DNA of 64,000 nucleotides from an uncultured Acidobacteriota bacterium (GTDB lineage Bacteria > Acidobacteriota > Vicinamibacteria > Vicinamibacterales > SCN-69-37): assembly GCA_963730485.1 (NCBI GenBank), contig CAVSRY010000009.1:9214-73213 (forward strand), written 5' to 3'. A model generated the notes under the pieces. It was not told the DNA's origin and did not search any database. It was given only the letters and a program-made list of their open reading frames with translations. Made by a program: the position numbers and the translations under genes. Positions 2,159 through 61,611 of this stretch are shown piece after piece; within the stretch, counting starts at the first letter, position 1; each line of letters starts with the position of its first letter.

Positions 2159-2262
2159 TTTGGGTCTTGAGTCCTGGGTCTTGGGTCTTGGGTCCTGAGG
2201 CGTGTGGACTCGAGGCCCAAGACGACGCCGACCCAAGTCTCAAGACTCAAGACCCAGGACTC
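2159..2262. repeat. heptad-repeat hairpin, word GGGTCTT / AAGACCC
   Basis: Left arm: tgggtct tgagtcc tgggtct tgggtct tgggtcc tgagg. Short loop. Right arm: cgaggcc caagacg ... cccaagt ctcaaga ctcaaga cccagga ctc. It fills the spacer between the GNAT stop (2270) and the NYN start (2157). Confidence 0.85.
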
Positions 2263-2269
2263 TTAGAGT

Positions 2270-10407: not shown

Positions 10408-10462
10408 AGAACGTTCCAAGGTTCCAGCGTTCCTCGTTCCACGGTTCTGGTTCAGGTTCTAG
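10408..10462. repeat. single-arm degenerate heptad array, word (C)GTTCCA
   Basis: gaacgttcca aggttcca gcgttcct cgttcca cggttct ggttcag gttctag. This is the same word family as the left arm of the 15963 hairpin, but no inverted partner is nearby. Confidence 0.8.
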
Positions 10463-10471
10463 GTTTGACGA

Positions 10472-10510
10472 CGCGGTGAGGCGCAGAGCGCTTCACCGCG
10501 TTTTTCTTTT
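10472..10510 (+). terminator. Rho-independent terminator
   Basis: 13-bp stem cgcggtgaggcgc / gcgcttcaccgcg, loop aga, followed by tttttctttt. It lies downstream of CDS 9715-10407 and overlaps the stop of the convergent MFS gene. Confidence 0.8.
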
Positions 10511-14669: not shown

Positions 14670-14948
14670 TCAGCGCTTGGCGGCCGGATGCGGATGGTGC
14701 ACCACGGCGGAACGGGCGCCGCAACGCACGGTGATGTCGAAACCCGCGGGCTTGGCCGTGCAGGCGAGATCGATCGCCTCGGAGGGCGCGGCGCCCAGCC
14801 CATCGATGGCCGCGGCCAGCGCCGTCGCCAGCGTGTCTCGCTCGGTCTCCGGAATGCCGGCGAGGTCGACGTATCGCCCCACCACATCGTTCGCCAACCC
14901 GCGAAACCGCGGATCGGCCGGCACTCGAAGTGTGAACTCAGAAGACAT
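14670..14948 (-). CDS. hypothetical 92-aa protein between ribF and cysS
   Basis: ATG 14948: MSSEFTLRVPADPRFRGLANDVVGRYVDLAGIPETERDTLATALAAAIDGL...FDITVRCGARSAVVHHP. It is intact and in the same orientation as its neighbours. It faintly resembles the N-terminal half of RsbW/SpoIIAB-type HATPase proteins but has no ATP-binding motifs. Confidence 0.4.
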   Translation of the reverse strand: MSSEFTLRVPADPRFRGLANDVVGRYVDLAGIPETERDTLATALAAAIDGLGAAPSEAIDLACTAKPAGFDITVRCGARSAVVHHPHPAAKR

Positions 14949-15010
14949 CGGCCGGACGATTCTAGCAGTTCGGGGTCCGTCGTCAGGGCGTCGGGGTCGG
15001 GCCCACGTCG

Positions 15011-15953
15011 TCAAATCGCCATCTGGCCGAAGAGCGCGTCGGCGTCGGCGCAGTCGCGAGCAATCTGGGCGCGCAAGGCGTCCAGACCGTCGAAGCGCAC
15101 CTCGGGTCGCAGCCATTTCACGAAGGCCAGCCGGATGTCTTTCCCGTAGAGGTCGTAGACCCCGTCGAGCAGATGCGTTTCGATGGTGACCGGTCCCTCC
15201 CCGATCGTCGGGCCGAACGCCGATGCTCGTCACCGCGCGGTGCCACGTATCATCGATGACGACCATCGTCACGTAGATGCCGTGCGCCGGCACGAGCTCG
15301 TTCGCCGTCTCGAGGTTCGCCGTGGGAAAGCCCAGGGTCCGGCCGCGGCCGTCGCCGTGCATCACGCGACCGTCCACGAAATAGTGGTGCCCGAGAAGGG
15401 CGCCGGCTTCGTCCACGCGCCCCTCGGCCAGCAGGTGTCGAATCCGCGTGCTCGACACCACGAAGTCCTTGTATCGAACGGGCTCGATCTTCTCGACGCG
15501 GAAGCCCCGGTCTTCGCCGAGCGCACGAAGCAGCGTGAACGTGCCGGAACGGTCCCGGCCGAACAGGAAGTTCGTCCCGACCCAGACTTCCGCCGCGCCA
15601 ATCCAGTCCACGAGCACCGTCTCGACAAACAGCTCCGGCTCCCATCGCGAGAGCTCCTTCGTGAAGCGGACGATGGCGACCGCATCGAGACCGGCGCGCT
15701 CGAACGCCTCGAGCTTCTGATCGAGCGTCATCAGAAGCGGCGGCGCCTTGTCCGCGCGCAGCACACGGGGTGGATGGGGATCGAAGATCATCGCGACCGA
15801 GGTGCCGCGACACTCACGAGCTTCGCGGCGCACTTCGTCCACGAGCTTCTGGTGGCCACGATGGAGACCATCAAAATTGCCGAGCGCGACGACCGGATGC
15901 GGCCACCTGGGCCGCTGATCGTCGGGGAAAGACACGACCTGCATCGGGGACAT
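15011..15953 (-). CDS. ribF: bifunctional riboflavin kinase / FMN adenylyltransferase (frame break ~15205)
   Basis: VVALGNFDGLHRGHQKLV...FDPHP...; GHHYFVDGRVMHGDGRGRTLGFPTANL. The C-terminus IETHLLDGVYDLYGKDIRLAFVKWLRPEVRFDGLDALRAQIARD...LFGQMAI* is in another frame, with its stop at 15011. Confidence 0.9.
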
Positions 15954-15962
15954 GGTACGACA

Positions 15963-16091
15963 GGGTTCCACGGTTCCAGGTTCCAGGTTCCAGGGTTCTG
16001 GTTCAGGGTTCAACGTTCTGGGTTCAGTGTCCTCGCGCGTGAACCGTGAACCGGGAACCGTGGAACCCTGGAACCCTGGAACCCTGGAACC
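15963..16091. repeat. heptad-repeat hairpin, word GGTTCCA / TGGAACC
   Basis: The left arm 15963-16027 has about 9 units (gggttcca cggttcca ggttcca ggttcca gggttct ggttcag ...). The loop is tgtcctcgcgcg. The right arm 16040-16091 has about 7 units (tgaaccg tgaaccg ggaaccg tggaaccc x3 tggaaccg). Confidence 0.9.
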
Positions 16092-16097
16092 GCTACG

Positions 16098-16874
16098 TCA
16101 CTTCAATCGAGAGCCCGTCGTACGCCAGCGCCATGCCCGGCGGCAGTTCGGCGGACGTCAGCGGCATGACCCAGGTCGTGTGCGATGTGCGTGAAGTAGG
16201 TCTGCCGCGCGCCAATCTCACCCGCCGTGGTGATGGCTTCGGCCAGCGTGAAGTGCGTCGGGTGCGGCCGGCGCCGCAGCGCGTCGAGCACGAGCACGTC
16301 GAGGTCCCTCGAGCAGCGGTCGCGAGGATGCGGGCACGTCGTTGCAGTCGGTGAGGTACGCGAACCGCCCAAAGCGAAACCCGAGAATCTGCCAGCGGCC
16401 GTGCCGAATTGGCACAGGCACGATCCCGGCCGCGCCCAACTGGAACGGACCGTCGATGGTCCTGAGATCGAGCTGCGGCACACCGCCGCCGGCCGGCGCA
16501 CCGGCGTCGAACGCGTAATCGAACGTCCGGCGGATAGCGTCGAGCGTCCGGGCATCGGCGTACAGCGGCATCGACCGGCGGGTCATGTGATTGAAGCGAC
16601 GGATCTCGTCGAGCCCCATGATGTGATCGGCATGGGCGTGCGTCACGATGAGCGCGTCCACGCGCCGGATGTCGTGCGCGAGCGCCTGCGACCGCAGGTC
16701 CGGAGTCGCGTCCACCAGGACGCGTGTATCGTCATCGAGCTCGAGGTAGAGGGACGGGCGGAAACGCGTGTCGCGAGGATCGGTGGAACGGCAGACGTCG
16801 CAGTCGCAGCCGATCATGGGCACGCCGTGCGACGTGCCGGTGCCGAGGAACAGAACACGCACGAACGTTCGCAT
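16098..16874 (-). CDS. MBL-fold metallo-hydrolase (PhnP/phosphodiesterase-like); 2 frame breaks
   Basis: MRTFVRVLFLGTGTSHGVPMIGCDCDVC...ALIVTHAHADHIMGLDE (HxHxDH) ...FAYLTDCN...THFTLAEA.... The C-terminus ...TSAELPPGMALAYDGLSIEV* has its stop at 16098. Confidence 0.7.
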
Positions 16875-17824
16875 GCTAGCATGGCCGCCCGCATGCCTCG
16901 CCGGCGCTCCGCGCACGCGATCGACACCGCCGACGCGTCGCGGCGAAGGCGCCCGCGCGGGCGCGGCCTTCGCGCGTCTCGTCGAAATCATGGCGACGCT
17001 GCGTTCGCCGCACGGCTGCCCGTGGGATCGGCGGCAGACACATCGCAGCCTTCGGCCGTACCTGCTCGAGGAGACGTACGAGGCACTCGACGCGATCGAA
17101 CGCCGGGACTTCGCGGCCCTGCGTGACGAACTTGGAGACGTGCTGTTCCAGGTCGTGTTTCACTCCGAGGTCGCGGCTGCAGCCGGGCGCTTCGAAGTCG
17201 CAGACGTGATCCGCCAGGTGACGTCGAAGCTGATTCGACGGCACCCGCACGTCTTCACGGCCTGCGGGCGTCCCGCTCGGCCGGAGCACGCTTCGCTCGC
17301 CCAAACGCGTGCTCGAGGAGTGGGAACGGATCAAAGCCAGAGAGCAGTCCGCCGCGAAGGCGCGCGTGGGCCTGCTCGCCGGCGTGCCGCGCTCGCTGCC
17401 GGCCCTTCTCCGCGCGCACAAGATCGGCAAGCGAGCGGCGACGGTGGGCTTCGATTGGCCGCACGCGGCGGCCGTCATGGACAAAATCGAGGAGGAAGTC
17501 CGCGAACTTCGAGACGCGTTGTCGGAAGGACGCGCGCGCACCGCGGAGGAGCTCGGCGATCTGCTCTTCGCGCTGGCGAACCTCGCGCGAAAACTCGGCG
17601 TTGAGCCCGAAGCCGCCCTGACCGGCGCAAACGACAAGTTCACGCGCCGGTTTCACGACGTCGAACGGCTGCTCACCCGTCAGGGCCGCAGCGTGCACGA
17701 CGCGACCGCGGAGGAATTGGACGCGGCGTGGAACGAGGTCAAGCGTGCGTCCGCCACACGCGCATCGTCCAGGCCCGCCCGCGCATCGAGCGCACGGTCA
17801 GCGACCGCCCGTCGGTCTCGATGA
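16873..17824 (+). CDS. mazG: nucleoside triphosphate pyrophosphohydrolase MazG (frame break ~17300; exact start and stop uncertain)
   Basis: FARLVEIMATLRSPHGCPWDRRQTHRSLRPYLLEETYEALDAIE...LGDVLFQVVFHS. The second MazG domain reads ...FDWPHAAAVMDKIEEEVRELRDAL...ELGDLLFALANLARKLG. Confidence 0.85.
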
Positions 17825-20177
17825 CCGCCGCGCCATCGCGGTCGGTCCGAAACACCCGGGCGCCGATGGCGCCGAGCCGTTCGACGACCTCCGGGGCCGG
17901 GTGACCGAAGGGGTTGGCCCGTCCCGCGCTGATGAGCGCAACCTGCGGAGCGAACCTCTCGATGAACCCGGCGGACGACGACGTGCGGCTGCCGTGGTGG
18001 GCGACTTTCAGGATTCGAAGAGGCGCGCGGTCCTCCGTCAAGCGATTGGCCGCGAGGACGCGCTCGGTCTCCGCGCCGACGTCGCCGGTGAGAAGGAGCT
18101 CCACATCGCCGTAGCGCAATCGCAGGACAAGGGAGTCTTCGTTCCGCACACGCTGCCGCTCCCAGTCCGGCAGCGGCGGGTTCAGCACCTCGATCGATCA
18201 CGTCATCGATCCGCAGGCGATCGTGGCGTTGCAACTCGCGCCAGACGGGCGATGCTTGCATGAGGCGCCGCCGCTCTGCTTCTCTCGGCACGGGAACACC
18301 TTCCCAGATCTCTCGAGGCTTGAACGTGGACGCCACGGCTGCGGCGCCGCCGATGTGATCGAGGTCCGCGTGAGTGATCGCGAGCCAATCGAGACGGCGA
18401 ACACCGCTGGCCCAGAGGGCCGGACTGACGATTCGATCACCGGTGTCGAACCGGGCGCCCGCGCCTCCTGCGTCGACGAGCAGCGATTGCCCGCCGGGGA
18501 ATTGCACGAGAATGGCGTCCCCCTGGCCCACGTCCACCATCGTCACTCGAAGCCATCCAGCCGGTGGTTGCTTCAGCGCGGTCGCCGGCTCGAACGCCAC
18601 GACGAACACCATGACGGCAAACGCGACTCCAGCCGCACGGCGGGACGTGCTTCGTGAGGCCGCAATCCACGCAAGGCCCGTCAGGTAGAAAGCGGCTACG
18701 GAAACTCCCGCCGGCGGCGGCACGCGCCACGACAGCCAGGGCGCGATGTCGACGAGCGTCGAGGATCCGAGCAGCACGCCCGTCGCAGTCCGAGCGACGG
18801 CGCCTGCCAGCCCCGCTCCGCTCTCCCACACGCCAAGCACGCTGATTCCGACGATGCCCGCGACCTGCACGATGGCAATCATCGGAATCGCGACAATGTT
18901 CAGGACAAACCCTGCGATACCAACCCGGTTGAACAGCGTCGCCGCGACGGGCAAGAGCGTGAGTTCAGCGGCGAGTGTCGCGCCACACAGTCCGACGAGC
19001 CATCGGCGTCCCAACGCGGGCGTGGTCAGTCCCGGCCAGCGCGCGTCGTGCCAGGCCACAATCCGGCCGGCGCCGACGATGATGCCGAACGTCGCGCCGA
19101 AGCTCAGCCACGCGCCCGCGTCGATGACGGTGAGCGGGTCGGCCAGCGTCACGATGACCGCCACGACCGCCAGGACGTTCAGAGCCGGCGGCACCAGGCC
19201 GATCGACGCCGATCGCCAGGTACACCAGCGCGACCGCGACAGCCCGCGTCACGGACGGATCGCCGCCGACGATCCACCCGTACGCGACGACGCTGGCCAT
19301 CGTGAGGCCGGAGATGAGACGAGCCGATCGCACGACGAGTCGCAGGCCGAGATAGATGCCAGCCGTCAGCAGCGCGACGTTGCCGCCGGAGATCGCAATC
19401 ACGTGATACGTGCCGGCGACCTGCAAGCGACGCTCGAGTGGATTGTCGAGCCACGACCGGTCGCCGATCAGAATAGCGACGACGACGGCGCCGGTGGGAT
19501 CGTCTGGATCCGGAAAGAGGCTGGCGACCCGTTGGCGCACGCGCGCGCGCACCGCCGCGGCCCACTCGTCCCACCATCGCCCCGGCGCGACGTGAACGAC
19601 GAGTGCGCTCTTGACGCTACCCGTGAGCACGAACGGGCGACGGAGTACTTGCCACCGCTCAGATGGGCCACCAGGATTCAGCCATACCTGTGGCTGTCGG
19701 AGCGTCATCGGCGCGCGAATGGAACGGCCGGCGGTCCAGTCACGTATCAATCCGGCGGCAAGGTCGCCGCCGACATATGCCTGAATGCGTCCGCCGACAA
19801 CATGAGACCCGCGGTCGTCGTCGATGCTGTGGACATCGATGAGCAAACGAACTCCGGGATCGATCGCGGTCGCGTCGTCGACGAGCCGCCCGTTCACGAT
19901 GACCGATGGTCGTCGCGGATCGGCTTCCGTTCCGCTCCAGAGCGCGAGTGGCGCGTGGAGCACGCGGTCGCGCGCGGTCGCACCGTGCGCCATCGATGCC
20001 AGGACTGCGGCAGCGACGACAAATGCAGGACGCCAGCAAGCGCGCCGGCACGACAGCGGCCAGGCTCGCGATCGCCAGGGCCGCCGATAGGCACGCTGCG
20101 GCGGAGGGTTCGGGCCGAACCACACCACACGCGACGCCCGACAGGACGGCGACGGCCAGCACCAGCCCGATCTTCAC
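17739..20177 (-). CDS. comEC: DNA internalization-related competence protein ComEC/Rec2 (at least 3 frame breaks)
   Basis: The competence domain reads ...LQVAGTYHVIAISGGNVALLTAGIY.... The C-terminal MBL domain reads VTMVDVGQGDAILVQFPGGQSLLVDAGG...ITHADLDHIGG...KVAHHGSRTSS. Assembled from ORFs 19740-20177, 18965-20128, 17680-19194 and 17739-18188. Confidence 0.85.
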
Positions 20178-20396: not shown

Positions 20397-21167
20397 ATGC
20401 GTTCAGGTGTGAGCCGGGTTGTGTACGCATCGTTGGCGGCGTTCGGTCTATCCCTCGTCCTGTCGGGTTCTGCACAAGCCCAGTCGGCCCTGCCGACCGG
20501 TGAACAGTCTGTAGCCTCTACCGCGATGAACCTCGACTACGACGCGGCCGTGGCGAACATCGCGCCGAAAGCACGGACCGGCGCGAGCTTCCTTCGCCAA
20601 GTCCAGGCCGTCCAGGTCAACGACAACGAGGATCGGGCATTGCCGTCGGCGTGCTCGGCATGCTCACCTGGCCGTCCATCGACATCATTGATGAGTCCGA
20701 CGATCACATCAAGAGCCGCACGGGCTGGGGCGTTGGTGGGTGGATTGGCGGCAACCGCAATGGCCGCGTCGGCTTCGTCGGAGAGTTCATCTATGGCGTC
20801 CGAAAGGCGACATCCAAGGAAGAGGGCGAAGAGGACTTCGACGTTGATTTCGAGATCTTCCAGATCGCCGCGCCGTTTCATATCAACTTCGGGATTCCGC
20901 AGCCGCAACAGCGTAGGCGGGTATATCGTCGTCGGGCCGTCGTTCACCTTCAACCTCGGCCAGAAAGGCAACGGCGTGGACTTTCCGAGCGCCGACGAGT
21001 TCGGCGGCGTCGACATCGGAATCATCGGTGGAGCGGGCATCGAGTTCTACCGCGTCGCTATTGAGGGTCGCGGCAACTGGGGACTGAACGAGATTTCGGA
21101 CGAGGGCGACTTCGAGAAGATCAAGACGACCACATTCGAACTGCTCTTCAAGTTTGCATTCAACTAA
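20397..21167 (+). CDS. outer-membrane beta-barrel protein (OmpA-N/porin-family-like); 2 frame breaks
   Basis: aaaggggag lies upstream of ATG 20397. Signal peptide MRSGVSRVVYASLAAFGLSLVLSGSAQAQ. ...GWGVGGWIGGN...VGFVGEFIY...IGIIGGAGIEFYR...TFELLFKFAFN*. Confidence 0.55.
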   Translation: MRSGVSRVVYASLAAFGLSLVLSGSAQAQSALPTGEQSVASTAMNLDYDAAVANIAPKARTGASFLRQVQAVQVNDNEDRALPSACSACSPGRPSTSLMSPTITSRAARAGALVGGLAATAMAASASSESSSMASERRHPRKRAKRTSTLISRSSRSPRRFISTSGFRSRNSVGGYIVVGPSFTFNLGQKGNGVDFPSADEFGGVDIGIIGGAGIEFYRVAIEGRGNWGLNEISDEGDFEKIKTTTFELLFKFAFN

Positions 21168-21193
21168 GGCTTAGGGCTCAAGGCTTAGGGCCC
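21166..21193. repeat. 14-nt (2 x 7) direct tandem repeat
   Basis: aaggcttagggctc aaggcttagggccc, immediately after the OMP stop codon. Confidence 0.7.
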
Positions 21194-21206
21194 GGGCCAG
21201 TACGTC

Positions 21207-21241
21207 GAGGGGCCGACCGTCAGGTCGGCCCCTTTTCTTTT
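21207..21241 (+). terminator. Rho-independent terminator
   Basis: gaggggccgacc gtca ggtcggcccc followed by ttttctttt. Confidence 0.85.
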
Positions 21242-21247
21242 CCAGCC

Positions 21248-21647
21248 TCAGTCGTCGTCTGGACGACGCGCGCGGTGCTTCTTCGCGGCGCCGCGGTGTT
21301 TCTTCTCAGTCAATCGACGCTCGCGCGCGGCAGTCGTCGGCTTGGTCGGCCTGACGCCGGCGCGGACGTCTGCTCGCGCTCTGAATGAGCGCGTCGAGCC
21401 GCGCCCGCGCCGCCTCCCTATTTGCCGCCTGCGTCCGGTGCTCGCGCGCCTGCACGATGAGCACGTCGTCGGTCGTCATCCGGCTCCCCGCCAGCTGCCG
21501 AAGACGCGCTTTCACGTCGTCCGCCAGCGTCGACCGCGCCACGTCGTAGCGCAACTCCACGGCCGTCGACACCTTGTTGACGTTCTGGCCGCCCGGGCCG
21601 GAGGAGCGGATGAAGTGTTCCGTAATGAGAGAGGCGTCGGTAGCCAT
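21248..21647 (-). CDS. arfB: alternative ribosome-rescue factor ArfB (peptidyl-tRNA hydrolase, GGQ); frame break ~21360
   Basis: MATDASLITEHFIRSSGPGGQNVNKVSTAVELRYDV.... The basic tail RPTKPTTAARERRLTEKKHRGAAKKHRARRPDDD* is recovered in another frame, with its stop at 21248. Confidence 0.85.
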
Positions 21648-21685
21648 TTGCTATTGATTATTGGCAATTTGCTATTTGCGGATTG
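21648..21685. repeat. left terminal inverted repeat (TTGCTAT-type heptads) of the four-helix-bundle cassette
   Basis: The reverse complement of ttgctattgattattggcaatttgctatttgcggattg matches 22208-22245 at 33/38 positions without gaps (hand alignment). The heptad array continues to about 21710. Confidence 0.8.
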
Positions 21686-21807
21686 AACATTTTGACATTT
21701 GTTATTGCGGGGAGTGGCAGGAATTGGAAGCGATTCCTCGTTTCGGCAAGGTTCTCAGCTACCGTCTGCTGCCATGACATGGCAAGAGGCTTGCTCCGCT
21801 GACCGTC

Positions 21808-22199
21808 GTGAATGCACAGGAACTCCGAGATCGATCGGCAACGTATGCCGCTGCAGTGTCGCGGTTCTCTCGGCCTCTGCTGACTTCACTAGCCAGCCGT
21901 GATGCCGCGTTGCCAGGTGTCCCGCGCCGCAGCCTCGGCCGCGGCAAACTATCGCTCCGCATGTGTTGCCAGGTCGCATGCCGAGTTCCGCGCCAAGCTC
22001 GGCATCGCGCTCGAAGAATGTGACGAGAGCCTCTATTGGCTGGAATTTCTCAGGGACTCAGAACTGTCAAACGGAGACGGACTCGCCAAGCTGCTCAAGG
22101 AAGGAAAGCGAACTCGCGAAGATACTGGCCGCCTCGAAGCGAACTAGTGCGCGGCGTGCACAAGCGGCGAGACGGTTTCGCCCTCGCAATAGCCAATGA
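21808..22199 (+). CDS. four-helix-bundle protein (23S rRNA intervening-sequence protein family, TIGR02436-like); 2 frame breaks
   Basis: ...AQELRDRSATYAAAVSRFSRPLL... / ...QVSRAAASAAANYRSACVARSHAEFRAKLGIALEECDESLYWLEFLRDSEL... / ...ELAKILAASKRT.... These are the family's characteristic ANYRAA..ArS..EF..KlgI..EE.DEs.yWLe pattern. Assembled from ORFs 21808-, 21899- and 21963-22199. Confidence 0.75.
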
Positions 22200-22267
22200 C
22201 CAATAACAAATCCACCAATAGCAAATAGCCAATAACCAATAGCAATTGGCGATTGGCTATCGGGCTA

Positions 22268-22273
<6 letters not shown>
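22186..22273. repeat. right CAATAGC-type heptad array (contains the right terminal inverted repeat 22208-22245) ending in a local hairpin over the carB stop
   Basis: gcaatag ccaatga ccaataa caaatcc accaata gcaaata gccaata accaata gcaattg gcgattg gctatcg ggctatt agccc. The word orientation flips at about 22245. gggcta-t-tagccc spans the carB TAA. Confidence 0.8.
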
Positions 22274-25529
<3,256 letters not shown>

Positions 25530-26903: not shown

Positions 26904-28774
26904 TTATTCAACCGCGCGCAGCGTCGTCGTCAGCGCCGCGGTACGTCCCGCGTCCACGCGCACACGACCCGTCGCGGACCGGTATCCGCCAAGTTCCAAT
27001 GTGACCTGATGATCGCCCGGTCCGACGTCGGCCAACCGCAATGGCGCAAGGCCGACGAACCGGCCGTCCACGATGACGCGCGCGCCGCGCGGACGCGAGT
27101 CTACATCGATTGCGCCGCGTGTGGAGGTGCTCGCCACGGTTGGCGTCGATTCCAAGCCCGGCGCGAGCGTGACATCGAGCGTCCGGACGGGCGCCGTCGG
27201 CGCGAATCGTCACACGCTCGGTGCGCGGGACATGGCCGGGACGAGCCACGCGCACGGCGTACGTGCCGGGCGCCAGGCCCTTCGCCACGACCGGGGTCTC
27301 GCCGAAGTGCCGGCCGTCAATCGTCACGAGCGCGCCGGACGGCTGAGATCGCACGACAAGGCGGCCAGCGGCGACAGCCGGCCTGGCGTCACGTGCGGCG
27401 GGCGGGTCAGACCGCTCCCGTTCCGCTGGTGCGACCGGCGGCGTCACTGGAGCGGGGGTCGGCGCCGGTGCGGGCCTCGGCGCGTCCGTCTCGGCAGGGG
27501 GCGCGGGCTCGGGCTGAACGCGGCACCCGGGCGACGATACTCGTGGGCTCGGCGGCCGGTTGGACGGGCGCGGCGAACCAGGTCCGCGCGACCAAGAGCC
27601 CTCCACCGACGCCAAACAGCAGACCCGCCGCGGCATAGACGAGCGTCTTCACCAGCACCGCTGAACGGCGGGGCTGCGGAGTGGCGGCGAGTGTCGAAGA
27701 TACCCGCCGGCACTTCGTAGGACGGAGATGCGAGCGCCGTGTCGAGCCACTCGTGTGCCTGCGCCGCTGCCGGCACGATCATCGCACGTGAGCGAGTCTC
27801 GATGGGTGCAATGACCGGCGCGACCTCGTCCGCCTTCGCGGTTGCCACCGGCGTGGCGACAACCGGCTCGACTGGCTCCTCCGGGCAGGAACTCGTCGGC
27901 TGACCGCGCCGCAAGAAAGACCTCGGAGGCCTTTTCCGCGTCTTCTCGAGAGAAAGACCTCCGAGGTCTTTCTTGCTCTCTACGATGGCCGGCGGCGACC
28001 GGCGCCTTGGACGGGGCCGTGGATGAGCGCTGGCCGACCTCGTCGAGCGCGCCAATCAGGGCGTCGGCTGAGCTGAAGCGCTGCTCAGGCGAATCGGCCA
28101 GGGCGGTCGACAGGACCTTCCGGAGCCGCACGCGATGCTCTGGCGCCATTTCCTTCGCGAACACGCCATCCTGCTCGCCACTTGCGGCCGGCCGCCGGCC
28201 GGTCAGCAGTTCGTGCGCAATCACGCCGAGCGAAAAAACGTCCGCGCGCGCGTCCCACGGCCGCACTACCCCGCTCCGGCGCGACGTACGGCCGTCGCAG
28301 CAGAGGATTGCTCATCCCCGCGGTTTCGAGCGCCTGGACGATGCCGAACCCGGTCACGCCCGCGAGCCCGTCTTCATCCTCGTGGACGAAGACGTCACGC
28401 GGATGCAACGCGCCGTGAAGGATTCCGGCTCCGCCCGCCGACACGAGGGTCGCCGCGAGCGGGCGGAGGATGCGGAGGGCCCGGTCGATCGGCATGGGCA
28501 TCGCGCGGCGAAGCACGATGTCGAGCGTCTCTCCAGGCTGGAACGCCATCACGACGTACGGCGTCGTGCCCTCGAGTCCGACGTCGAGCAGCGGAACGAT
28601 CAGCGGATGGACCGGCGGAGTGGACTGCAACCGGCGCAGCGCATCGGCAAGCCGGACGATTTGTTCAGGGAGGACCTCGAGCCGGAAGACCTTGATCGCA
28701 ACGAGCCGGTCACGCGGCGAATCGAACGCACGAAACACCGGGCCGAGAACGCCACTGCCGGTCTGGTGAAGCAC
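26904..28774 (-). CDS. Hanks-type pseudokinase - linker - TM - two PEGA domains (several frame breaks; could be two adjacent genes)
   Basis: The kinase fold reads GSGVLGPVF...VAIKVF...YVAPER...ADVFSLGVIAHELLTGRRP...RFSSA, but HRDLKPxN is replaced by HGALHPRD and DFG by GFG. A TM segment (LVKTLVYAAAGLLFGVGGGLLVA) follows. The PEGA domains read RLVVRSQPSGALVTIDGRHFGETPV...GTYAVRVARPGH and AIDVDSRPRGARVIVDGRFVGLAPL...GDHQVTLELGGY. Confidence 0.6.
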
Positions 28775-36159: not shown

Positions 36160-37282
36160 GCTCGCCGGGACTACTACGAAGTCCTCGGCGTCGAGCGGCG
36201 CGCGGACGAGCAGGAAATCAAGAGCGCCTACCGCAAGCAGGCCCTGAAATACCACCCGGATCGCAACGCCGGCGACAAGGAGGCCGAGGAACGCTTCAAG
36301 GAAGCGGCCGAAGCCTATGCCGTCCTCGGCGACGGGGAGAAGCGCGCGCGCTACGATCGCTTCGGCCACGCGGGGGTGCAGGGTGCCGGCGGCCAGGGTC
36401 CGGGCTTCAACGCGGACATCTTCGCGGACTTCTCGGACATCCTCGGCGACTTCTTCGGGTTCGGCGGCGGCCGTCGCGCGGGTCCGAGCCGAGGCGCCGA
36501 TCTTCGCTACGACCTCGAGATCTCGTTCGAAGAGTCCTTCGCGGGCACGGAGAGCACGATCCAGATCCCGCGCGAGGAGACGTGCGAGACGTGCAAGGGC
36601 ACGCGCGCCGCGAAGGGATCGTCAGCTGAGACCTGCCCTCAGTGCCGCGGCACCGGCCAACTGCGCTTCCAGCAGGGCTTCCTCGTCGTCGCCCGGCCGT
36701 GCGGCCAGTGCGGCGCGACCGGCCAGATCGTCCGCAATCCCTGCCCATCCTGCCGCGGCACCGGGCGCGTCGCCCGCGATCGGCGCGTGACGGTTCGGAT
36801 TCCGGCGGGGATCGATGACGGTCAGCGGCTCCGCCTGCACGGCGAAGGCGAGCACGGCGCGGTTGGTGGTCCGACCGGCGACCTCTACGTGGTCATCCAC
36901 GTCCGTCCGCATCCCGTGTTCCGCCGGGAAGAGGATGACCTCTTCGTCGAGGTACCGGTGCCCTATCCCACGATGGCGATGGGCGGATCGTTCAAGGTCG
37001 AGGGGCCCGCCGGGCCGCTCACCGTTGACGTGTCGGCGGGAACGCCGAGCGGTTCGGTCATCAGCGTTCCGCGGCAAGGGCATGCCGAGCGTGACCGGCC
37101 GCGGGCGCGGCAGCTTCCACGTGCGCGTCGTGGTCGACGTGCCCAAGAAGCTCAGCAAGGATCAGAAGAAGCTCGTCACCGAGCTCGGTCACACGATGCC
37201 CGTCGAGACCATCGAGGCCACGCCGCCCGATACCGACAGGGACAAGCCGTTTTTCGAGAAGGTGAAGGACCTGTTCGGCTAA
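36156..37282 (+). CDS. dnaJ: molecular chaperone DnaJ (frame breaks ~36170 and ~37080)
   Basis: GTG 36156 overlaps the grpE stop (GTGA). J domain: DYYEVLGVERRADEQEIKSAYRKQALKYHPDRN. G/F region. Four CxxCxG zinc motifs (CETCKGT, CPQCRGT, CGQCGAT, CPSCRGT). C-terminus ...KLSKDQKKLVTELG.... Confidence 0.9.
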
Positions 37283-37290
37283 GCCGATTC

Positions 37291-37441
37291 GCCATTTGTT
37301 ATTGGTTATTGGCTATTTGTTATTGCATTGGCATTTGCTATTGCCGGTACTGTGGTCGAGCCGTCGGCGCAACCGTCGCAATAGCAAATGACCAATGGCA
37401 CAATGCCCAATAACAAATAACCAATAACAAATAGCAAATGG
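37291..37441. repeat. heptad-repeat hairpin, word TTGNTAT / CAATAGC (ORF-less relative of the 21648/22208 inverted repeat)
   Basis: Left arm: gccattt gttattg gttattg gctattt gttattg cattg gcattt gctattg c. The loop is about 33 nt. Right arm: gcaatag caaatga ccaatgg cacaatg cccaata acaaata accaata acaaata gcaaatg g. It fills the dnaJ-prmA spacer, and the prmA ATG (37438) lies in the last heptad. Confidence 0.9.
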
Positions 37442-38327
37442 ATCGCCTGTTTCCCGCGCTGGAAATCGAGTGGCCCGCGCCGGTCGACTCGAGCGCATCG
37501 ATCAGTTGATCGCAGCGCTGGATGACGAAGGACCGACTGCGGTCGAAGAGCGCTCATTCGGGCGTTGCGGTGTTCTTTCCGAGCGATGACCGGCGCAATC
37601 GCGCGCTCGAGATCGCTCGCGCCTTCGCTCCAGAAGCCAGCGTCACGTGCCGTCTCCATCTCGGACGAAGCCTGGGCGGAACGCAGTCAAGCGTCGCTCA
37701 CCGCGATCCGTGTCGGCCGCGTTGTCGTGACGCCCCCGTGGGCGCGTGCGGATACGGCGTCGTCGGACGAAGACATCGTCGTCACGATCGTGCCGTCGAT
37801 GGGGTTCGGGACGGGCCATCACGCGTCCACGCGTCTCTGTCTGCAGCTGCTTCAATCCGTGGCGTCACGACGCCCAGTCGGTGCTCGACGTCGGCACCGG
37901 TTCGGGCGTCCTCGCCATTGCGGCCTGGCGTCTCGGGGCGGCACGTGTGATCGGAATCGATGTCGATGCCGACGCTCTGACATCCGCTCGCGAAAACGTC
38001 GAGCTCAACGGCGCGGACGCGGCGGTGGAACTGCAGGTCGTCGATCTCGCTGACGCCTCGGACCAGTTCGGCGGCGGCTTCGACCTCGTCCTCGCGAACC
38101 TCACCGGCGCGATGCTCGAGCGGTTTGCGTCCGCGCTCGGATCGCTCGTCGCGCCAGGCGGGTCGCTCATCGTCAGCGGGTTTCAAATCGGAGAGGACGA
38201 CAACGTGCTGCGGGCATTCGAAGGCGCGCGGTTCACGATGTCGGATCGTGGTGATGAGGATGGTTGGGTGGCGTTGCGCCTTTCAGGCCCCAGGCCTCAA
38301 GACTCAAGCCCCAAGCCTCGCGCCTAG
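37438..38327 (+). CDS. prmA: ribosomal protein L11 methyltransferase (at least 3 frame breaks)
   Basis: ...IRVGRVVVTPPW...IVVTIVPSMGFGTGHHASTRLCLQLL...VLDVGTGSGVLAIAAWRLGAARVIGIDVD...NVELNG.... The last ~13 codons ([13 protein letters not shown]) are translated heptad repeat. Confidence 0.8.
38281..38320. repeat. single-arm heptad array, word (A)AGACTC/AGCCCCA (same family as 2159 and 41571)
   Basis: ggcccca ggcctca agactca agcccca agcctcg cgcc. It lies inside the 3' end of the prmA ORF and abuts the convergent rsmE stop. Confidence 0.75.
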
Positions 38328-41172: not shown

Positions 41173-41587
41173 ATGCTCAGCCGGCGCGAGTTGAGCCGCG
41201 CCGAGCTCACCACCAAGCTGATCGATCGCGGCTTCGCGTCGCGACGAGGTCGACGCCGCGGTCGAACGCCTCGCCGACAACCGTTCGGTGGACGACCGCC
41301 GGGCGGCCTTTGCGCACGTGCGCACCGCCAGCCGGCTGAAGGGCCGCGGGCGGCTGCGCATTCAGCGCGAGCTCGAAGCGCGCGGCTTCTCGCGCGAACT
41401 GACCCGCGAGGCCCTCGCCGAATTCCGCCGGACGAGGACGTCAACGCCATCAAACGGTTCATCGAGCGAAAGAGCCGGACCATCGACGACTCGCCCGCAG
41501 GCCGACGCCGGCTGTTCAATCAGCTTGCTGAGGCGGGGCTTCTCATCGGCGATGATTGCGAAAGTCTTAAAGAGTCTTGGGTCTTGA
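41173..41587 (+). CDS. recX: recombination regulator RecX (at least 2 frame breaks; N-terminus may extend upstream)
   Basis: ...[23 protein letters not shown]...[35 protein letters not shown]...[11 protein letters not shown]...[20 protein letters not shown]. The last codons lie in the following hairpin arm. Confidence 0.75.
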
Positions 41588-41662
41588 GTCTTGGGTCTTG
41601 GGCTGCCTGGCCCGGCCGATGCTCCGGTATCGACCCAAGCCGCAAGACTCGAGCCCCAAGCC
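41571..41662. repeat. heptad-repeat hairpin, word GGGTCTT / AAGACCC
   Basis: Left arm: agagtct tgggtct tgagtct tgggtct tgggc. The loop is about 28 nt. Right arm: gacccaa gccgcaa gactcga gccccaa gcc. It lies between the recX stop (41587) and the alaS ATG (41683). Confidence 0.9.
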
Positions 41663-41682
41663 GATACAATCTCTTCACTCAC

Positions 41683-44388
41683 ATGACCGGTCACGAGATT
41701 CGTCAGGGTTTTCTCGACTACTTCGCGCGCCAGGGACATCGCATCGTTCCATCGTCGTCGCTGATTCCGGCCGACGATCCGACGTTGCTCTTCACCAACG
41801 CCGGGATGAACCAGTTCAAGGACCTGTTCCTCGGCAAGGAGCGACGCGACTACCGGCGAGCCACGACGGCGCAGAAGTGCATGCGCGTGAGCGGCAAGCA
41901 CAACGACCTCGACAACGTGGGGCCGTCCGACCGGCATCACACGTTCTTCGAGATGCTCGGCAACTTCTCGTTCGGCGACTACTTCAAGACGGACGCGATC
42001 GCGTTCGCGTGGGAGCTCCTGACGACGGTCTGGAAGCTCGAACCGGACCGGTTGTTTCCGACCATCTTCAAGGGCGAGGCCGGGCATTCCGCGCGACGAC
42101 GAGGCGTTCGACGCTGTGGACGAAGTTCGTGCCGGCGTCGCGCATCACCGAGCTCGGCCTCGCGGACAACTTCTGGCAGATGGGCGAGACGGGGCCCTGC
42201 GGCCGCTGTTCGGAAATCATGTATTTCCGCGGCAACGCACATCCCTGCGATCAGCCGGTCTGCAAGGGCATCGAGTGCGACTGCGAGCGGTACGTCGAGG
42301 TCTGGAACAACGTGTTCATGGAGTTCGACCGCGGCGAAGGCGGCACGCTGACGCCGCTGCCGGCGAAGTCGATCGACACGGGCATGGGCCTCGAGCGGAT
42401 CACGTCGGTCATTCAGGGCAAGCTGTCGACCTACGACACGGACTTTTTCCAGCCCATCCTCCGGGCGATCGCGGACCGCGCCGGCCGCACCTACACCGGC
42501 ACGACGAGACCGCTCGACCACCCGGACGTCTCGATGCGGGTCGTCGCCGATCATCTGCGCGCGATGACGTTCCTCATCGCCGACGGCGTCCTGCCGTCGA
42601 ACGAGTGGCGTGGCTACGTGCTGCGCAAGATCATGCGGCGAGCCATGCGGCACGGGAAGAAGCTCGGTCTCAGCGAGCCGTTCCTGCACGCGCTCGTGGA
42701 CGTCGTCGTGCGCGAGATGGGCGCGAGCTATCCGGAGCTCGTCCGCCAGCGCGACGCGATCGTCCGTACCGTCCGCGCCGAGGAGGACCGATTTGATGCG
42801 GTGCTCACGAGCGGGCTGCCCCGCCTCGAGGAACTGCTGGATCGCATCAAGGCGTCCGGCGCTTCCGTCGTGCCGGGCGACGCGGTGTTCCGCCTCTACG
42901 ACTCGCTCGGTGTCCCGCTCGATTTCGCGGAGGACCTCGCCGGCCAGCGTGGGCTCGTCCATCGATCGCGAAGGCTACGAGACGGCCATGGAGGCGCAGC
43001 GGGAGCGCGCCCGCGCCGGCAGCACGTTCGAGTCGAAGAAGGGCGTCTCGTTCGAGTATGCGAGCGACGCCGAGCGGCGTCGTGTCGAGGCTGTGGGTGA
43101 TGGGTTCGAGGGCTATCACGACGACCGAAGTGCCCGATGCGACGGTCGTCGCCCTCTTCGATGACGCCCGCCGGCAGGTCGAGCGGCTCGAACGCGGGAC
43201 GACTGGATTCGTCGTGCTCGACCGCACGCCGTTCTACGTCGAGTCCGGTGGCCAGGTCTCCGACACCGGCCAGCTCGTCACGTCTGACGGACGCGCCTGC
43301 AGCGTCACCGGCATGTCACGCCTCGCGCCTGGCGGCGCCCGCGGCACATCGCGTCGCGGTCGCGGCCTCTCTCACGCCCGGCGTGAGGGTCACGGCGCGC
43401 GTTGACGCGGGCGCTCGCGACGCGACGCGGCGCAATCACACGGCCACTCACCTCCTCCACGCGGCGCTCCGGCAACGGCTCGGCACCCACGTGCGTCAGG
43501 CCGGCTCGCTCGTCGCGCCGGACCGGCTCCGATTCGACTTCTCGCACTTCGAGGCGCTCACCGACGACGACACGCGGGAAATCGAGCGCGTGGTCAACGA
43601 GCACGTCTACGGCAACACGCCGGTGAACACCGAGGTGCGGAGCACCGAGGACGCGATTCGTGACGGCGCGATGGCGCTCTTCGGCGAGAAGTACGGCGAT
43701 CGTGTCCGGGTCGTCACGGTTCCCGGATTCAGCGTCGAGCTGTGCGGCGGTACTCACGTCACGGGCGACCGGCGACATCGGTCCGTTCGTGATCACCGAG
43801 GAGTCCGGCGTCGCCGCGGGCGTTCGCCGAATCGAGGCGCTGACGGGCGCCGGCGCAGTCGCATATCTGCAGGCCCGCGACGCGGCACTCACCCGCACCC
43901 AGGCGGCGTTGAGCGTGCCCGCTACCCGAACTGGCGGACGCGGTCGCTCGACTGCAAGCGGAGGTGAAGCGCCTCACGCGCGAGAACGCGCAGCTGAAGA
44001 CGAAGGTGGCGATGGGTGGCCCGCGAGCCGATCAGGACGACAGCGTCGCGATTGGCGACGCGCGGCTCGTCGCCCGCCGCGTCAGCGGGCTCGAGAAGGA
44101 CGCGCTGCGCGGCCTGGCCGATTCGCTCCGCGACAAACTGAAGACCGGCGTCGTCGTGCTGGCCGCGGAGAACGACGGGAAGGCGCAGCTGCTGGTATCG
44201 GTGACGAAGGATCTCACCGGCCGCGTCAAGGCCGGTCAGCTCGTCAAGGAACTGGCGCCGCTGATCGGTGGAGGCGGCGGCGGGCGGCCGGACTTCGCGG
44301 AAGCGGGGGGCAAGGACCCTTCGGGGATCGATCAGCGTCCTCGCGCGCGCCAAAGAACTGGTCGACCAGCGCGCTCGGTGCCGGATAG
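41683..44388 (+). CDS. alaS: alanine--tRNA ligase (many frame breaks; stop approximate)
   Basis: [51 protein letters not shown]...[16 protein letters not shown]...[18 protein letters not shown]...; ...[10 protein letters not shown]...[10 protein letters not shown]...; editing domain [12 protein letters not shown]...CGGTH; C-terminal ...[22 protein letters not shown].... Confidence 0.9.
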
Positions 44389-44413
44389 GTCGAACCATTG
44401 CGGATCTGCGATC

Positions 44414-44559
44414 GCGATTGGGGATTGAATTGATGAGATTGAGGGATTCGGTGATTGCGGATCGAGATCGGTCGGAAGGCCGGTGGGTTTCAATCCTCAA
44501 TCCGCAATCGCCCGATCATCAATGCAATCATCAATTTCAAATTACAAATCCTCAATTCC
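44414..44559. repeat. heptad-repeat hairpin, word GATTGNN / NNCAATC
   Basis: Left arm: gcgattg gggattg aattgat gagattg agggatt cggtgattg cggatcg. The loop contains ggaaggccggtggg. Right arm: tcaatcc tcaatcc gcaatcg cccgatc atcaatg caatcat caatttc aaattac aaatcct caattcc. Arm pairing is imperfect. Confidence 0.75.
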
Positions 44560-44579
44560 GTGGCAGAGGTCTTTCTCCA

Positions 44580-44969
44580 TTGACTGAATCGATCCGCCTC
44601 GACGTCTGGCTCGACGTCGCGTGTCTGTTCAAGACGCGATCCGAGGCTCAGCAGGCCTGCAAGGGCGGCAAGGTGGACGTCAACGGGCGCTCGGCCAAGC
44701 CGCACCGGGACGTGAAGGCCGGAGACATCGTCGAAATCACCAGGACGCTGGGACGGAAGCAGCGGGTGGTCGTGCGGGCCGTGTTCGACCAGCACATCCC
44801 CAAGGCGCAGGCCCGCTCGCTCTACGAAGACACGACCCCGCCGCCATCGCCGGAGGAACAGGCCCTGCTGGACCTTCTGCGGGTCGCCAGACCGCACCAC
44901 CGGCGCGACCTGGGCACAGCGGACCGGCGGGAACGTCGCCGGATCCGGTCGGAAAAGCAGGGCGACTGA
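44580..44969 (+). CDS. RNA-binding S4-domain protein (Hsp15/HslR-like)
   Basis: TTG 44580: (M)TESIRLDVWLDVACLFKTRSEAQQACKGGKVDVNGRSAKPHRDVKAGDIVEI.... The length (about 129 aa) and basic C-terminus fit Hsp15-type proteins. Confidence 0.65.
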   Translation: MTESIRLDVWLDVACLFKTRSEAQQACKGGKVDVNGRSAKPHRDVKAGDIVEITRTLGRKQRVVVRAVFDQHIPKAQARSLYEDTTPPPSPEEQALLDLLRVARPHHRRDLGTADRRERRRIRSEKQGD

Positions 44970-44977
44970 GAACGGAG

Positions 44978-45010
44978 GAAACCGGGTTTCTCCTCAAGAA
45001 ACCCGGTTTC
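44978..45010. repeat. GAAACCGGGTTTC-family palindrome hairpin (14-bp stem, 5-nt loop)
   Basis: gaaaccgggtttct cctca agaaacccggtttc lies 9 nt after the S4-protein stop and is followed by TATACT (45014-45019). Confidence 0.85.
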
Positions 45011-45083
45011 TTCTATACTCAAGTGTTCGCGGTCCGCTCATGGACCGCTTCTGGCGGGCTCGGCCCGCAGGTAAGGACAGCAC

Positions 45084-45344: not shown

Positions 45345-45346
45345 GA

Positions 45347-45401
45347 AAAGGGGTCGGGACGCTTTTTACGTCGAACGTAAAAAGCGTCCCGACCCCTTTT
45401 T
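45347..45401. terminator. bidirectional Rho-independent terminator (perfect 25-bp palindrome with A/T tracts on both sides)
   Basis: aaaaggggtcgggacgctttttacg tcgaa cgtaaaaagcgtcccgaccccttttt, between convergent rpsT and holA. Confidence 0.9.
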
Positions 45402-56420: not shown

Positions 56421-56489
56421 CCTTTCAGCGCCCGCTTGAACGGCTGGCTTTCAGCGCCGCTTCAACGGCTCGCTTTCAGCGCCGCGACC
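56421..56489. repeat. about 25-nt direct tandem repeat x2.6 spanning the etfA stop codon
   Basis: cctttcagcgcccgcttgaacggctgg / ctttcagcgccgcttcaacggctcg / ctttcagcgccgcgacc. The last copies encode the etfA C-terminus (AALKASR*) on the minus strand. Confidence 0.8.
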
Positions 56490-57430: not shown

Positions 57431-57432
57431 GG

Positions 57433-61472: not shown

Positions 61473-61486
61473 GGGTGGACATGGGA

Positions 61487-61605
61487 CAAGTTAGAAGTTA
61501 GAAGCCAGAAGTCAGAAGTGACTGACGGCCTTCGGCCGTGCATGTCTTCTCGGAACCGCAAGTGGCCAGTAGCTTCTGACTTCTAACTTCTAACTTCGAA
61601 CTTGT
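61487..61605. repeat. heptad-repeat hairpin, word AGAAGTN / NACTTCT, with an internal GGCC-TTCG-GGCC mini-hairpin
   Basis: Left arm: caagtt agaagtt agaagcc agaagtc agaagtg actg. The centre contains acggccttcggccgt. Right arm: cagtagc ttctgac ttctaac ttctaac ttcgaac ttg. It fills the rpmF-plsX spacer. Confidence 0.9.
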
Positions 61606-61611
61606 CGGAGC

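Follow-up and report, generated by a model that had tools for sequence, protein, structure and literature searches.

Results

Heptanucleotide hairpins in a Vicinamibacterales genome

The spacer upstream of ribF in contig CAVSRY010000009.1 (assembly GCA_963730485.1), from an uncultured Acidobacteriota bacterium of the order Vicinamibacterales, is occupied by an inverted repeat whose arms are tandem arrays of a 7-nt word. We analyzed a stretch of 64,000 nt around it, referred to here as the window and numbered from its first nucleotide. The repeat (hairpin C, Table 1) lies 8 nt from the ribF ATG (15953) and 4-11 nt from the stop of a gene for an MBL-fold protein (16098-16105); here, as throughout the window, the flanking open reading frames (ORFs) were identified by Pfam. 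Its left arm consists of about nine GGTTCCA-like units and is separated by a loop of 13 nt from a right arm of complementary GAACC-type units of 7-8 nt each. Both strands of each locus were folded and compared with dinucleotide shuffles; the RNA of hairpin C (15959-16094) gave -89.3 kcal/mol on the + strand, against -51.0 kcal/mol (sd 4.8) for the shuffles (z -8.0), and -82.1 kcal/mol on the - strand (z -9.3; shuffles about -50), in agreement with an initial annotation that had described the entire ribF spacer as one inverted repeat. Hairpin C is one copy of a Vicinamibacterales-wide class of palindromic dispersed repeats.

The same arm-loop-arm architecture recurs in the window, as the initial annotation had stated, in five further compact hairpins and one split pair; three single arrays are also present, so that the paired form accounts for seven of the ten loci. 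All six compact hairpins fold below their shuffled controls (z -3.8 to -11.6 over both strands), and the arms in the window are 35-65 nt long and built from 4-10 units, elements of this class forming stems of 27-62 bp; hairpin J is the most degenerate of the six, and hairpin K carries at its apex a mini-hairpin, ACGGCC-GAA-GGCCGT, that is kept in relatives. Tandem Repeats Finder (TRF) reported period-7 arrays at every locus listed in Table 1, and a single array detector run on the window and on 100 composition-preserving block shuffles gave 11 period-7 arrays against 0.02 in the shuffles, with periods 4-6 and 8-12 at background level. With three or more head-to-tail copies of a 7-nt unit, above chance, the arrays belong to the heptanucleotide long simple sequence repeats (SSRs) of the short tandemly repeated repetitive (STRR) type, and the 64-kb window holds at least five word families unrelated to each other. 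The window gave no match to Rfam at the gathering threshold, and relaxing the search to E values of up to 1 yielded only spurious miRNA-like matches far below that threshold; no tRNA or tmRNA was found in searches of the window, nor any rRNA or other Rfam family.

A number of long conserved genes in the window are split across overlapping ORFs in different frames (carB 22268-25461, alaS 41577-44428, ribF 14670-16013, and also 16103-16991), which reflects either an indel-noisy assembly, as of a long-read metagenome-assembled genome (MAG), or pseudogenes. Codon-usage gene calling was only partly usable because of these many frameshifts, and the exact unit lengths (7 versus 8 nt) may likewise include indel errors. 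That the hairpins themselves arose from errors of sequencing or assembly in a noisy long-read MAG is, we consider, extremely improbable, because independent short-read assemblies of close relatives (L085, L168/L169) and of more distant ones (L023, L001) carry such hairpins, partly at the same loci.

Table 1. Heptamer arrays, hairpins and the enclosed gene remnant in the window (z, folding against dinucleotide shuffles on the strand in brackets).
Feature	Position	Strand	Description
Hairpin A	2159..2263	-	Word GGGTCTT/GAGTCCT, complement AAGACCC; z -5.7 (+) / -6.8 (-)
Array B	10408..10467		GTTCC-type units; between convergent genes; followed directly by terminator 10470-10502
Hairpin C (type example)	15961..16092	-	Word GGTTCCA / TGGAACC; arms 15961-16027 and 16041-16092
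Array D	21166..21200		AAGGCTT/AGGGCTC units; begins at stop of outer-membrane beta-barrel gene; followed by terminator 21207-21240
Arm E	21644..21700		TTGCTAT-type units; overlaps arfB start codon (21645-21647, - strand)
23S_rRNA_IVP gene remnant	21899..22147	+	PF05635 match, E 7e-11; in E/F loop
Arm F	22187..22262		ATAGCAA/CCAATAA units; about 6 nt from carB stop (22268-22270, - strand)
Hairpin G	37285..37443	+	Word TTGNTAT / ATANCAA; z -11.6 (+) / -9.1 (-)
Array H	38281..38322		CAAGCCC/CAAGACT units; convergent prmA/rsmE junction
Hairpin I	41570..41664	+	Word GGGTCTT/GAGTCTT; z -5.2 (+) / -4.1 (-)
Hairpin J	44412..44561	+	Word GATTGNN / NNCAATC; z -4.8 (+) / -3.8 (-)
Hairpin K	61483..61608	-	Word AGAAGTN / NACTTCT; z -8.2 (+) / -9.5 (-)

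A split element encloses an IVP gene and has an ORF-less paralogue

Two arrays near 21648 and 22208, initially listed as separate loci, are real, but they are the two arms (E and F) of one element of about 620 nt that exactly fills the spacer from the carB stop to the arfB start. The arms are 530 nt apart and form a duplex of -51.3 kcal/mol, and the sequence between them holds the remnant of a gene of the 23S_rRNA_IVP family (IVP hereafter), a four-helix-bundle protein, with 82 aa against 107-138 aa in relatives. An ORF matching PF05635 was found in the loop at 21644-22262 only; the type example and the other five compact hairpins are without it. Relatives carry an IVP gene at the same locus (P0123, P0124; L164), and in L164 the arms at arfB-carB are built from the word TTGGTCA instead of the TTGCTAT of the window and are again mutually complementary. 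The native arm duplex of L164 (-75.9 kcal/mol), like that of the window, is stronger than either window x L164 cross (-39.5 and -46.2 kcal/mol), so that at this junction the hairpin persists while the word changes, the outcome for which the initial annotation had proposed to align orthologous spacers.

The arms of hairpin G are collinear with E and F (51/57 and 63/74 positions identical), with the order of the variant units kept; the local alignment of the right arm of G with F (57/67 identical) scores 80, compared with 33 (sd 6) for F with shuffled units. In the same way array B matches the left arm of C collinearly (46/54 identical; score 64 against 37, sd 6.5, for shuffled units), and A and I agree at 25 of 26 positions of their left arms, their loops being unrelated to each other. 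Judged by this unit order, hairpin G is an ORF-less paralogue of the E/F element, and it is the only compact hairpin so matched. Collinear paralogues at different loci require copying between loci; the words, which the initial annotation took to differ between loci, are not independent, and the loci, instead of being separate inventions of one structure, form paralogous families with conserved unit order, one of which includes an IVP gene. Two marks of miniature inverted-repeat transposable elements, inverted termini and collinear copies at 85-89% identity (G against E/F), are present; no target-site duplication was visible by eye in this one window, where no systematic search for one was made.

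Hairpins span whole spacers between co-directional genes

All six compact pairs lie between co-directional genes, and the distances to the neighboring stops and starts bear out the proposal that they replace entire intercistronic spacers. Hairpin A is set between the stop of a GNAT gene (2270-2272; 6-8 nt away) and the GTG start of an NYN/OST-HTH gene (2157; 2-4 nt away), while hairpin G follows the dnaJ stop (37280-37282) and contains the prmA ATG (37438) within its right arm. Hairpin I begins at the recX stop (41568-41570) and ends just ahead of a TACAAT box, with the alaS ATG at 41684; the left arm of hairpin J covers the last alaS codons and the stop (44426-44428), leaving about 20 nt to the TTG start (44580) of an S4-domain gene; and hairpin K, downstream of the rpmF stop, comes to within 12 nt of the plsX ATG (61472). 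Taken together, 0-11 nt separate the upstream stop from the 5' foot, J excepted, whose arm includes the stop. On the 3' side the distance from foot to start is 0-12 nt for A, C and K and about 20 nt for I and J, and the start of the gene that follows G falls within its arm. All ten loci of the window are between Pfam-supported ORFs or at their last codons, the units being read as ORF tails only in H and in the first units of J, and the divergent (promoter) spacers are without arrays. An insertion that leaves the stop at one foot of a stem and the start at the other may for this reason be tolerated in such tight junctions.

The placement of the feet in A, C, G and K, where no free Shine-Dalgarno region is left, and the similar geometry in L023 would suit translational coupling, in which the terminating ribosome melts the base of the stem and frees the occluded start of the next gene. 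We consider this explanation improbable: what speaks for it is geometry, hairpins I and J leave about 20 nt with promoter-like or Shine-Dalgarno-like sequence before the start, and relatives have spacers of 2-18 nt without any hairpin as well as unpaired arrays between co-directional genes.

Of the junctions that the initial annotation named as normally tightly linked (dnaJ-prmA, rpmF-plsX, recX-alaS), recX-alaS need not be one operon, since a conserved -10-like TACAAT box lies 12 nt upstream of the alaS ATG in the window (41665-41686) and 7-14 nt upstream in all relatives' alaS loci (L004-L023). The box stands without a Shine-Dalgarno sequence at the alaS start in Vicinamibacterales loci, which suggests that alaS has its own promoter and a leaderless or near-leaderless mRNA. 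Hairpin I ends just before this box and is therefore in a position like that of a 3' untranslated region (3'-UTR).

Beside hairpin K, a 10-nt tandem duplication (GTGGACATGG x2, 61465-61485) doubles the plsX start codon; a relative (L168, 98%) has a 9-nt version of this duplication, with three extra codons.

Chirality and the relation to terminators

No T-run follows any heptamer hairpin in the window, so that the U-tract of an intrinsic (Rho-independent) terminator is lacking, and the three canonical terminators with which the hairpins were initially contrasted are real, each with a T-run (10470-10502, 21207-21240 and 45346). The first of these was the only one found in a terminator scan of the first 20 kb; those at 21207 and 45346 were recognized from folds. 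Arm order relative to transcription was discarded as a measure because, whichever strand of a palindrome is read, the arm that comes first is the same, and a strand-independent chirality (G-first versus C-first) was used instead. Of 26 hairpins that could be scored, 22 have a 5' arm richer in G than in C (binomial p 5e-4), two of the four opposite cases being probably orthologous, and the canonical terminators and perfect hairpins of the window have the same G-rich 5' arm. A possible reason is that the C-rich arm would never be exposed single-stranded to Rho.

This chirality, shared with the three canonical terminators and with two other perfect hairpins of the window, would be expected if the elements terminated or attenuated transcription with no U-tract, or if they blocked 3' exonucleases and so set the relative stability of the upstream and downstream cistrons, in the manner of repetitive extragenic palindromic (REP) sequences. 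The 3'-UTR position of hairpin I between the recX stop and the -10-like box of alaS, the location of arrays B and D directly upstream of canonical terminators, and the absence of arrays from divergent spacers, as in Xanthomonas, point the same way. We nevertheless regard such a role as unlikely. Besides the missing U-tract, the next start in G, A, K and C is within the stem or 0-12 nt away, and efficient termination there would silence ribF, prmA, plsX and the NYN gene, and stems of 40-60 bp far exceed those of terminators.

Two near-perfect hairpins not built from heptamers occur at 27911-27976 and 44967-45021, with arms of 24-25 nt and z of about -6; in both the G-rich arm leads, and neither has a clear T-run. 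A second palindrome family, likewise not of heptamers, with termini GGGGACGGG...CCCGTCCCC and inner sequences TTTTCCACAG...CTGTGGAAAA, was seen in relatives (L004, ~18200-18310; L009, ~17330-17450); the bidirectional terminator of the window at 45346-45400 (AAAAGGGGTCGGGACGC...) and an 18-nt rpmF-plsX palindrome in L001 (9983-10000) look related to it.

The single arrays B, D and H do not fold on themselves beyond controls (z 0.3 to -2.7). Array D has a counterpart at the same position in a relative (L164), with a different copy number, and array H (38283-38327) is read as a 14-aa C-terminal tail past the conserved end of PrmA, the prmA stop overlapping the stop of the convergent rsmE. A rule by which unpaired arrays sit at convergent gene ends and pairs inside operons is true in the window (three and six loci) and was dropped, because unpaired arrays of relatives also occur between co-directional genes. 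The highest TRF score in the window (105) belongs to a 25-nt tandem repeat (56422-56485; 2.5 copies, 92% identity) at the junction of the - strand ORFs 55267-56406 and 56462-57799.

Distribution and turnover in relatives

The closest PlsX, AlaS and RibF sequences come from MAGs and soil metagenomes of Vicinamibacterales, the best match of an AlaS fragment among GTDB representatives being 80%. In a scan of 1.9 Mb of related loci, period 7 was the dominant short tandem repeat; the arrays are essentially restricted to Vicinamibacterales loci and nearly absent from outgroup loci. More than 20 words were seen in these relatives (among them GGGCAAA, GATCAGG, GGGATCC, AGCTGAT, GGGCTTG, GGGAGTT, CCCTAAT, CAATCCG, ACTGGGG and TTGGTCA), in compact inverted pairs at about 25 loci and in roughly as many unpaired arrays. 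A clean case from a short-read assembly, L023 8966-9077, has eight GATCAGG and six CCTGATC units around a loop of 6 nt and spans from the TAG of the upstream gene, at the first unit, to the recX ATG, 0-2 nt past the last. Two split pairs, L001 5814-6511 and L109 3551-4204, share the word GGGCAAA/TTTGCCC and enclose about 600 nt, with duplexes of -80 and -65 kcal/mol. An apparent case of direct arms (L172) was judged unreliable, as the contig starts inside the array and repeats its own end. We found nothing in the literature on repeats in Vicinamibacteria or Luteitalea.

Comparison of orthologous spacers revealed rapid turnover. At ribF, a relative with 96% RibF identity (L085) shares the hairpin and its core word but has 5+5 units, against about 9+7 in the window; another with 98% identity (L084) has only the ribF-proximal arm, a perfect (ACGGGGA)x6; and all relatives at or below 84% RibF identity are without a hairpin, their genes overlapping or separated by about 2-60 nt. 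In L084 (1-400) a GNAT gene abuts the single arm in place of the MBL-fold gene upstream of ribF; either the contig, which is short, is chimeric, or the hairpin was the site of a rearrangement or insertion. At rpmF-plsX, L168/L169 (98% PlsX identity) have one unit fewer than the window in each arm, L170/171 (89%) have a degenerate 140-nt spacer with two or three recognizable units, and in L001 (88%) the 18 nt between the two genes form a small palindrome, CGGGGACGGCCGTCCCC. This palindrome resembles the apex mini-hairpin ACGGCC-NNN-GGCCGT kept in the window, L168 and L170, and it looks as if at least one element grew outward from a seed hairpin. The dnaJ-prmA junction is tight in L004, L009, L010, L012 and L013 and holds arrays of another word in L014, and the recX-alaS spacer of L023 is 17 nt long, a hairpin being present in the upstream spacer instead. 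Across the ribF and rpmF-plsX loci, spacers without hairpins are as short as 2-18 nt.

These filled and empty sites and the differences in unit number indicate that the elements are young, come and go at permissive junctions, and gain or lose whole units. Copy-number variation between close relatives, as slippage would produce, was found at both ribF and rpmF-plsX, and the initial suggestion that slippage homogenizes each locus is supported by the differing unit numbers at 96-98% identity. The companion suggestion of selection on structure did not find support, given short and empty orthologous spacers at or below 84% identity, the unpaired state of about half of the relatives' arrays, and the lack of a sense-strand bias (see below).

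IVP genes lie within heptamer arrays in several phyla

The association of IVP genes with heptamer arrays extends beyond the window. In L165-167, IVP genes lie between arms of GAATTGC and GCAATTC (-42 kcal/mol), and a weaker case is an IVP gene flanked by arrays at L023 14952-15284. All ten plasmid-borne IVP genes that were retrieved (L173-L182, from Nostoc, Anabaena, Planktothrix, Gloeocapsa, Pseudanabaena, Chlorohelix, Treponema and Bernardetia) are embedded in arrays of period 7 or 35 (5x7), which are mostly inverted. The arrays of N. punctiforme, with four GTCGGAG and five CCGACTT units, give a fold of -95 kcal/mol (z -8.3), and those of Planktothrix reach z -10.8. IVP genes within heptamer arrays were accordingly observed in Acidobacteriota, Cyanobacteriota, Chloroflexota and Spirochaetota, with a weak case in Bacteroidota. 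No statement of this association was found in the literature searched.

Several of the plasmid IVP genes and their arrays are situated within defence or CRISPR operons (L175, L176 on Planktothrix p1, L178, L179, L180, L182). Their neighbors include drmD and an MmeI-type enzyme (DISARM), DUF1156 and Swt1/HEPN, a helicase and an N6-methylase, and cas2 and cas1; one lies beside cas1.

Discussion

Comparison with known repeats and IVS elements

Heptamer repeats have been known since 1990, when STRR sequences were described, and they are the most over-represented long SSR in bacteria. The STRR sequences of heterocystous cyanobacteria, described mainly as direct arrays, were the analogy drawn in the initial annotation, and it holds in that both are tandem intergenic heptamers with several word families and variable copy number; the elements here differ in their host, which belongs to another phylum and is no heterocystous cyanobacterium, and in the dominance of the inverted pair in the window. 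The words TTGGTCA of L164 and ACTGGGG of L043 probably coincide with STRR2 and the complement of STRR1 of Mazel et al. 1990.

The initial annotation further knew of no description of paired inverted arrays in a GC-rich genome. Such arrays are already known from Xanthomonas, the closest described class, where GGGAATC repeats form 70-75 convergent pairs per genome and no regulatory role was found for them (Rehm et al. 2015, PMC4692102). Those repeats resemble the present ones in being tandem heptamers in the non-coding DNA of a GC-rich bacterium, arranged as inverted pairs that are favored between aligned ORFs and rare between divergent ones. They further resemble them in the order of the arrays, the G-rich one coming behind the stop on the sense strand and the C-rich one ahead of the next ORF, and in varying in length among related genomes with the repeat type kept. 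Unlike them, the window has at least five word families and its relatives more than 20, in place of one word genome-wide, and whole-spacer filling, unit-order paralogy and an IVP gene in the loop are not reported there. In Xanthomonas and Nostoc, four units and a G3 tract are characteristic of the GGGAATC and GGGGA(C/T)T repeats, and a G-quadruplex was proposed (PMC4692102). The window arrays have 4-10 units and several words without a G-tract, so that they depart from the pattern of four units with G3-4 tracts, and GGGGATT or GGGATTC units occur in hairpin J only.

A DNA-level role, in which a G-quadruplex, i-motif or cruciform would affect replication, supercoiling or protein binding, could draw on this likeness in chirality and placement and on the many G-rich-arm words that consist of a G3 tract and 4 nt (GGGTCTT, GGGCAAA, GGGATCC, GGGCTTG, GGGAGTT). 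It is very improbable in our judgement: GGTTCCA (C), TTGNTAT (G) and AGAAGTN (K) have no regular G3 tracts, four units are not preferred among the 4-10 observed, and a duplex of 40-60 bp should outcompete a quadruplex.

REP sequences act as 3' mRNA stabilizers, have a genome-wide consensus of about 20-40 nt and are moved by a REP-associated tyrosine transposase (RAYT). Like REP, bacterial interspersed mosaic element (BIME) and REPIN sequences of Enterobacteria and Pseudomonas, the hairpins are many-copy extragenic palindromes in co-directional or convergent spacers, presumably transcribed with the operon; unlike them, they have no common consensus, and their arms are internally tandem-repetitive. 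TAACTGA repeats of Beggiatoaceae, cyanobacteria and Bacteroidetes are almost all direct, in 2-6 copies upstream of starts, with one inverted case (MacGregor 2015, PMC4679880). They too are intergenic heptamer arrays that adjoin start codons and have a scattered phylogenetic distribution, but they consist of a single word in direct orientation, whereas the window arrays are mostly inverted pairs of several words.

The E/F element resembles the intervening sequences (IVSs) of 23S rRNA. In Coxiella, the IVS is a stem of terminal inverted repeats around an S23p/IVP ORF (Warrier et al. 2016, PMC4990558); the stem contains two or three tandem GACAGAT heptamers, their number varying among strains, and RNase III cuts at the first repeat (PMC4990558). 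The IVSs of Coxiella and Leptospira are regarded as selfish, and ORF-less hairpin forms exist (PMC4990558). The window element at 21644-22262 is organized likewise: its terminal inverted repeats pair into a long stem that includes tandem heptamers, and a PF05635 ORF lies between them. The window elements differ in lying between protein genes and not in helix 25 or 45 of 23S rRNA, and in their longer arms (35-65 nt) made wholly of heptamers.

Interpretation and alternatives

We tentatively favor, at somewhat less than even confidence, the interpretation that the hairpins are IVS-like palindromic elements built from heptamers, probably serving as RNase III substrates or 3'-end stems. This interpretation draws on the strong folds and the excess of period-7 arrays, on the near confinement of these arrays to Vicinamibacterales among the loci scanned, on the youth and slippage seen at ribF and rpmF-plsX, on the paralogy with unit order kept, on the IVP genes found within arrays here and in other phyla, on the Coxiella precedent, and on the chirality shared with terminators and the Xanthomonas pairs. 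The compact hairpins would be the non-autonomous form of such elements. They would multiply by copying, after which replication slippage would lengthen or shorten them in place, the complementarity of the arms being maintained by selection or by intrastrand template switching. In a transcribed spacer, the long near-perfect duplex, which at 27-62 bp is of the kind that RNase III acts on, would be cut by that enzyme or would protect a 3' end, in either case separating the two cistrons, and after RNase III cutting the leftover half-stems would protect the 3' end.

A number of observations weigh against this interpretation. Of the seven paired elements in the window a single one has an IVP gene, and that copy, being short (82 aa), may be defective. 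The interior of the L001 split pair codes for a 181-aa orphan with a signal-peptide-like start, unrelated to IVP, and a reading of the translation by which the L109 pair enclosed an IVP gene was withdrawn, as its interior has no Pfam match. No transposase was seen among the approximately 30 window ORFs scanned, a set short of an exhaustive ORF screen and of a search for RAYT. The Coxiella IVS is the one experimental system from which cutting by RNase III is extrapolated. The sense strand is not the more stable one (13 versus 8, p 0.38), so that selection at the RNA level is not supported; relatives that are slightly more distant have empty orthologous spacers, which makes any function dispensable; and many arrays of relatives are unpaired, some of them between co-directional genes.

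The absence of sense-strand bias, the empty orthologous sites and the many unpaired arrays make a neutral or selfish by-product the main rival. Arrays would grow by slippage wherever DNA is non-coding, inverted pairs would arise, and stay complementary, through template switching at small pre-existing hairpins, no function would be served, and the flanking coding sequence alone would limit their extent. The fast turnover, the unit-number differences among relatives at 96-98% identity together with the perfect array of L084, the seed palindrome at rpmF-plsX of L001 with its conserved apex, and the precedent of Xanthomonas repeats without a regulatory role (Rehm 2015, PMC4692102) all agree with such an origin. 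We hold it to be possible, if on the doubtful side, since it leaves several findings unaccounted for: collinear paralogues at unlinked loci need copying beyond local growth, symmetric slippage would not be expected to yield a 22:4 chirality common to terminators, the two arms at arfB-carB, separated by 530 nt, change in concert between the window and L164, and the cross-phylum association with IVP is not predicted.

A broader proposal follows the IVS-like interpretation further. STRR sequences, the Xanthomonas GGGAATC pairs, the Vicinamibacterales hairpins and 23S IVS stems may form one class of IVS-like selfish elements, whose autonomous form carries an IVP (Avd-like) gene and whose ORF-less copies are non-autonomous, processed by RNase III from operon transcripts and propagated, or kept complementary, by IVP in trans. 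This is a speculative unification, and we think it distinctly unlikely to be correct in full.

Significance

The elements described here are of a kind already known and differ from the Xanthomonas repeats in their phylum, in the many word families per genome, in whole-spacer stems that occlude starts and in their unit-order paralogy, and also in the evidence of growth from a seed hairpin, the terminator-like chirality and the connection to IVP and IVS. The cross-phylum IVP-heptamer association is the newest lead of this analysis. The origin and function of heptamer repeats become testable with arrays that behave as palindromic elements dispersed by copying, also grow in place, and have a terminator-like chirality and a link to IVP in at least five phyla and in the Coxiella IVS.

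In practice the hairpins occlude starts, extend ORFs (as in the PrmA tail) and break short-read assemblies, and they thereby affect how genes are called, and how good MAGs are, in a major soil lineage. If the link to IVP is true, two orphan phenomena, heptamer repeats and IVP/IVS elements, would become one, and operon junctions in these genomes would be routinely interrupted by RNase III-type stems.

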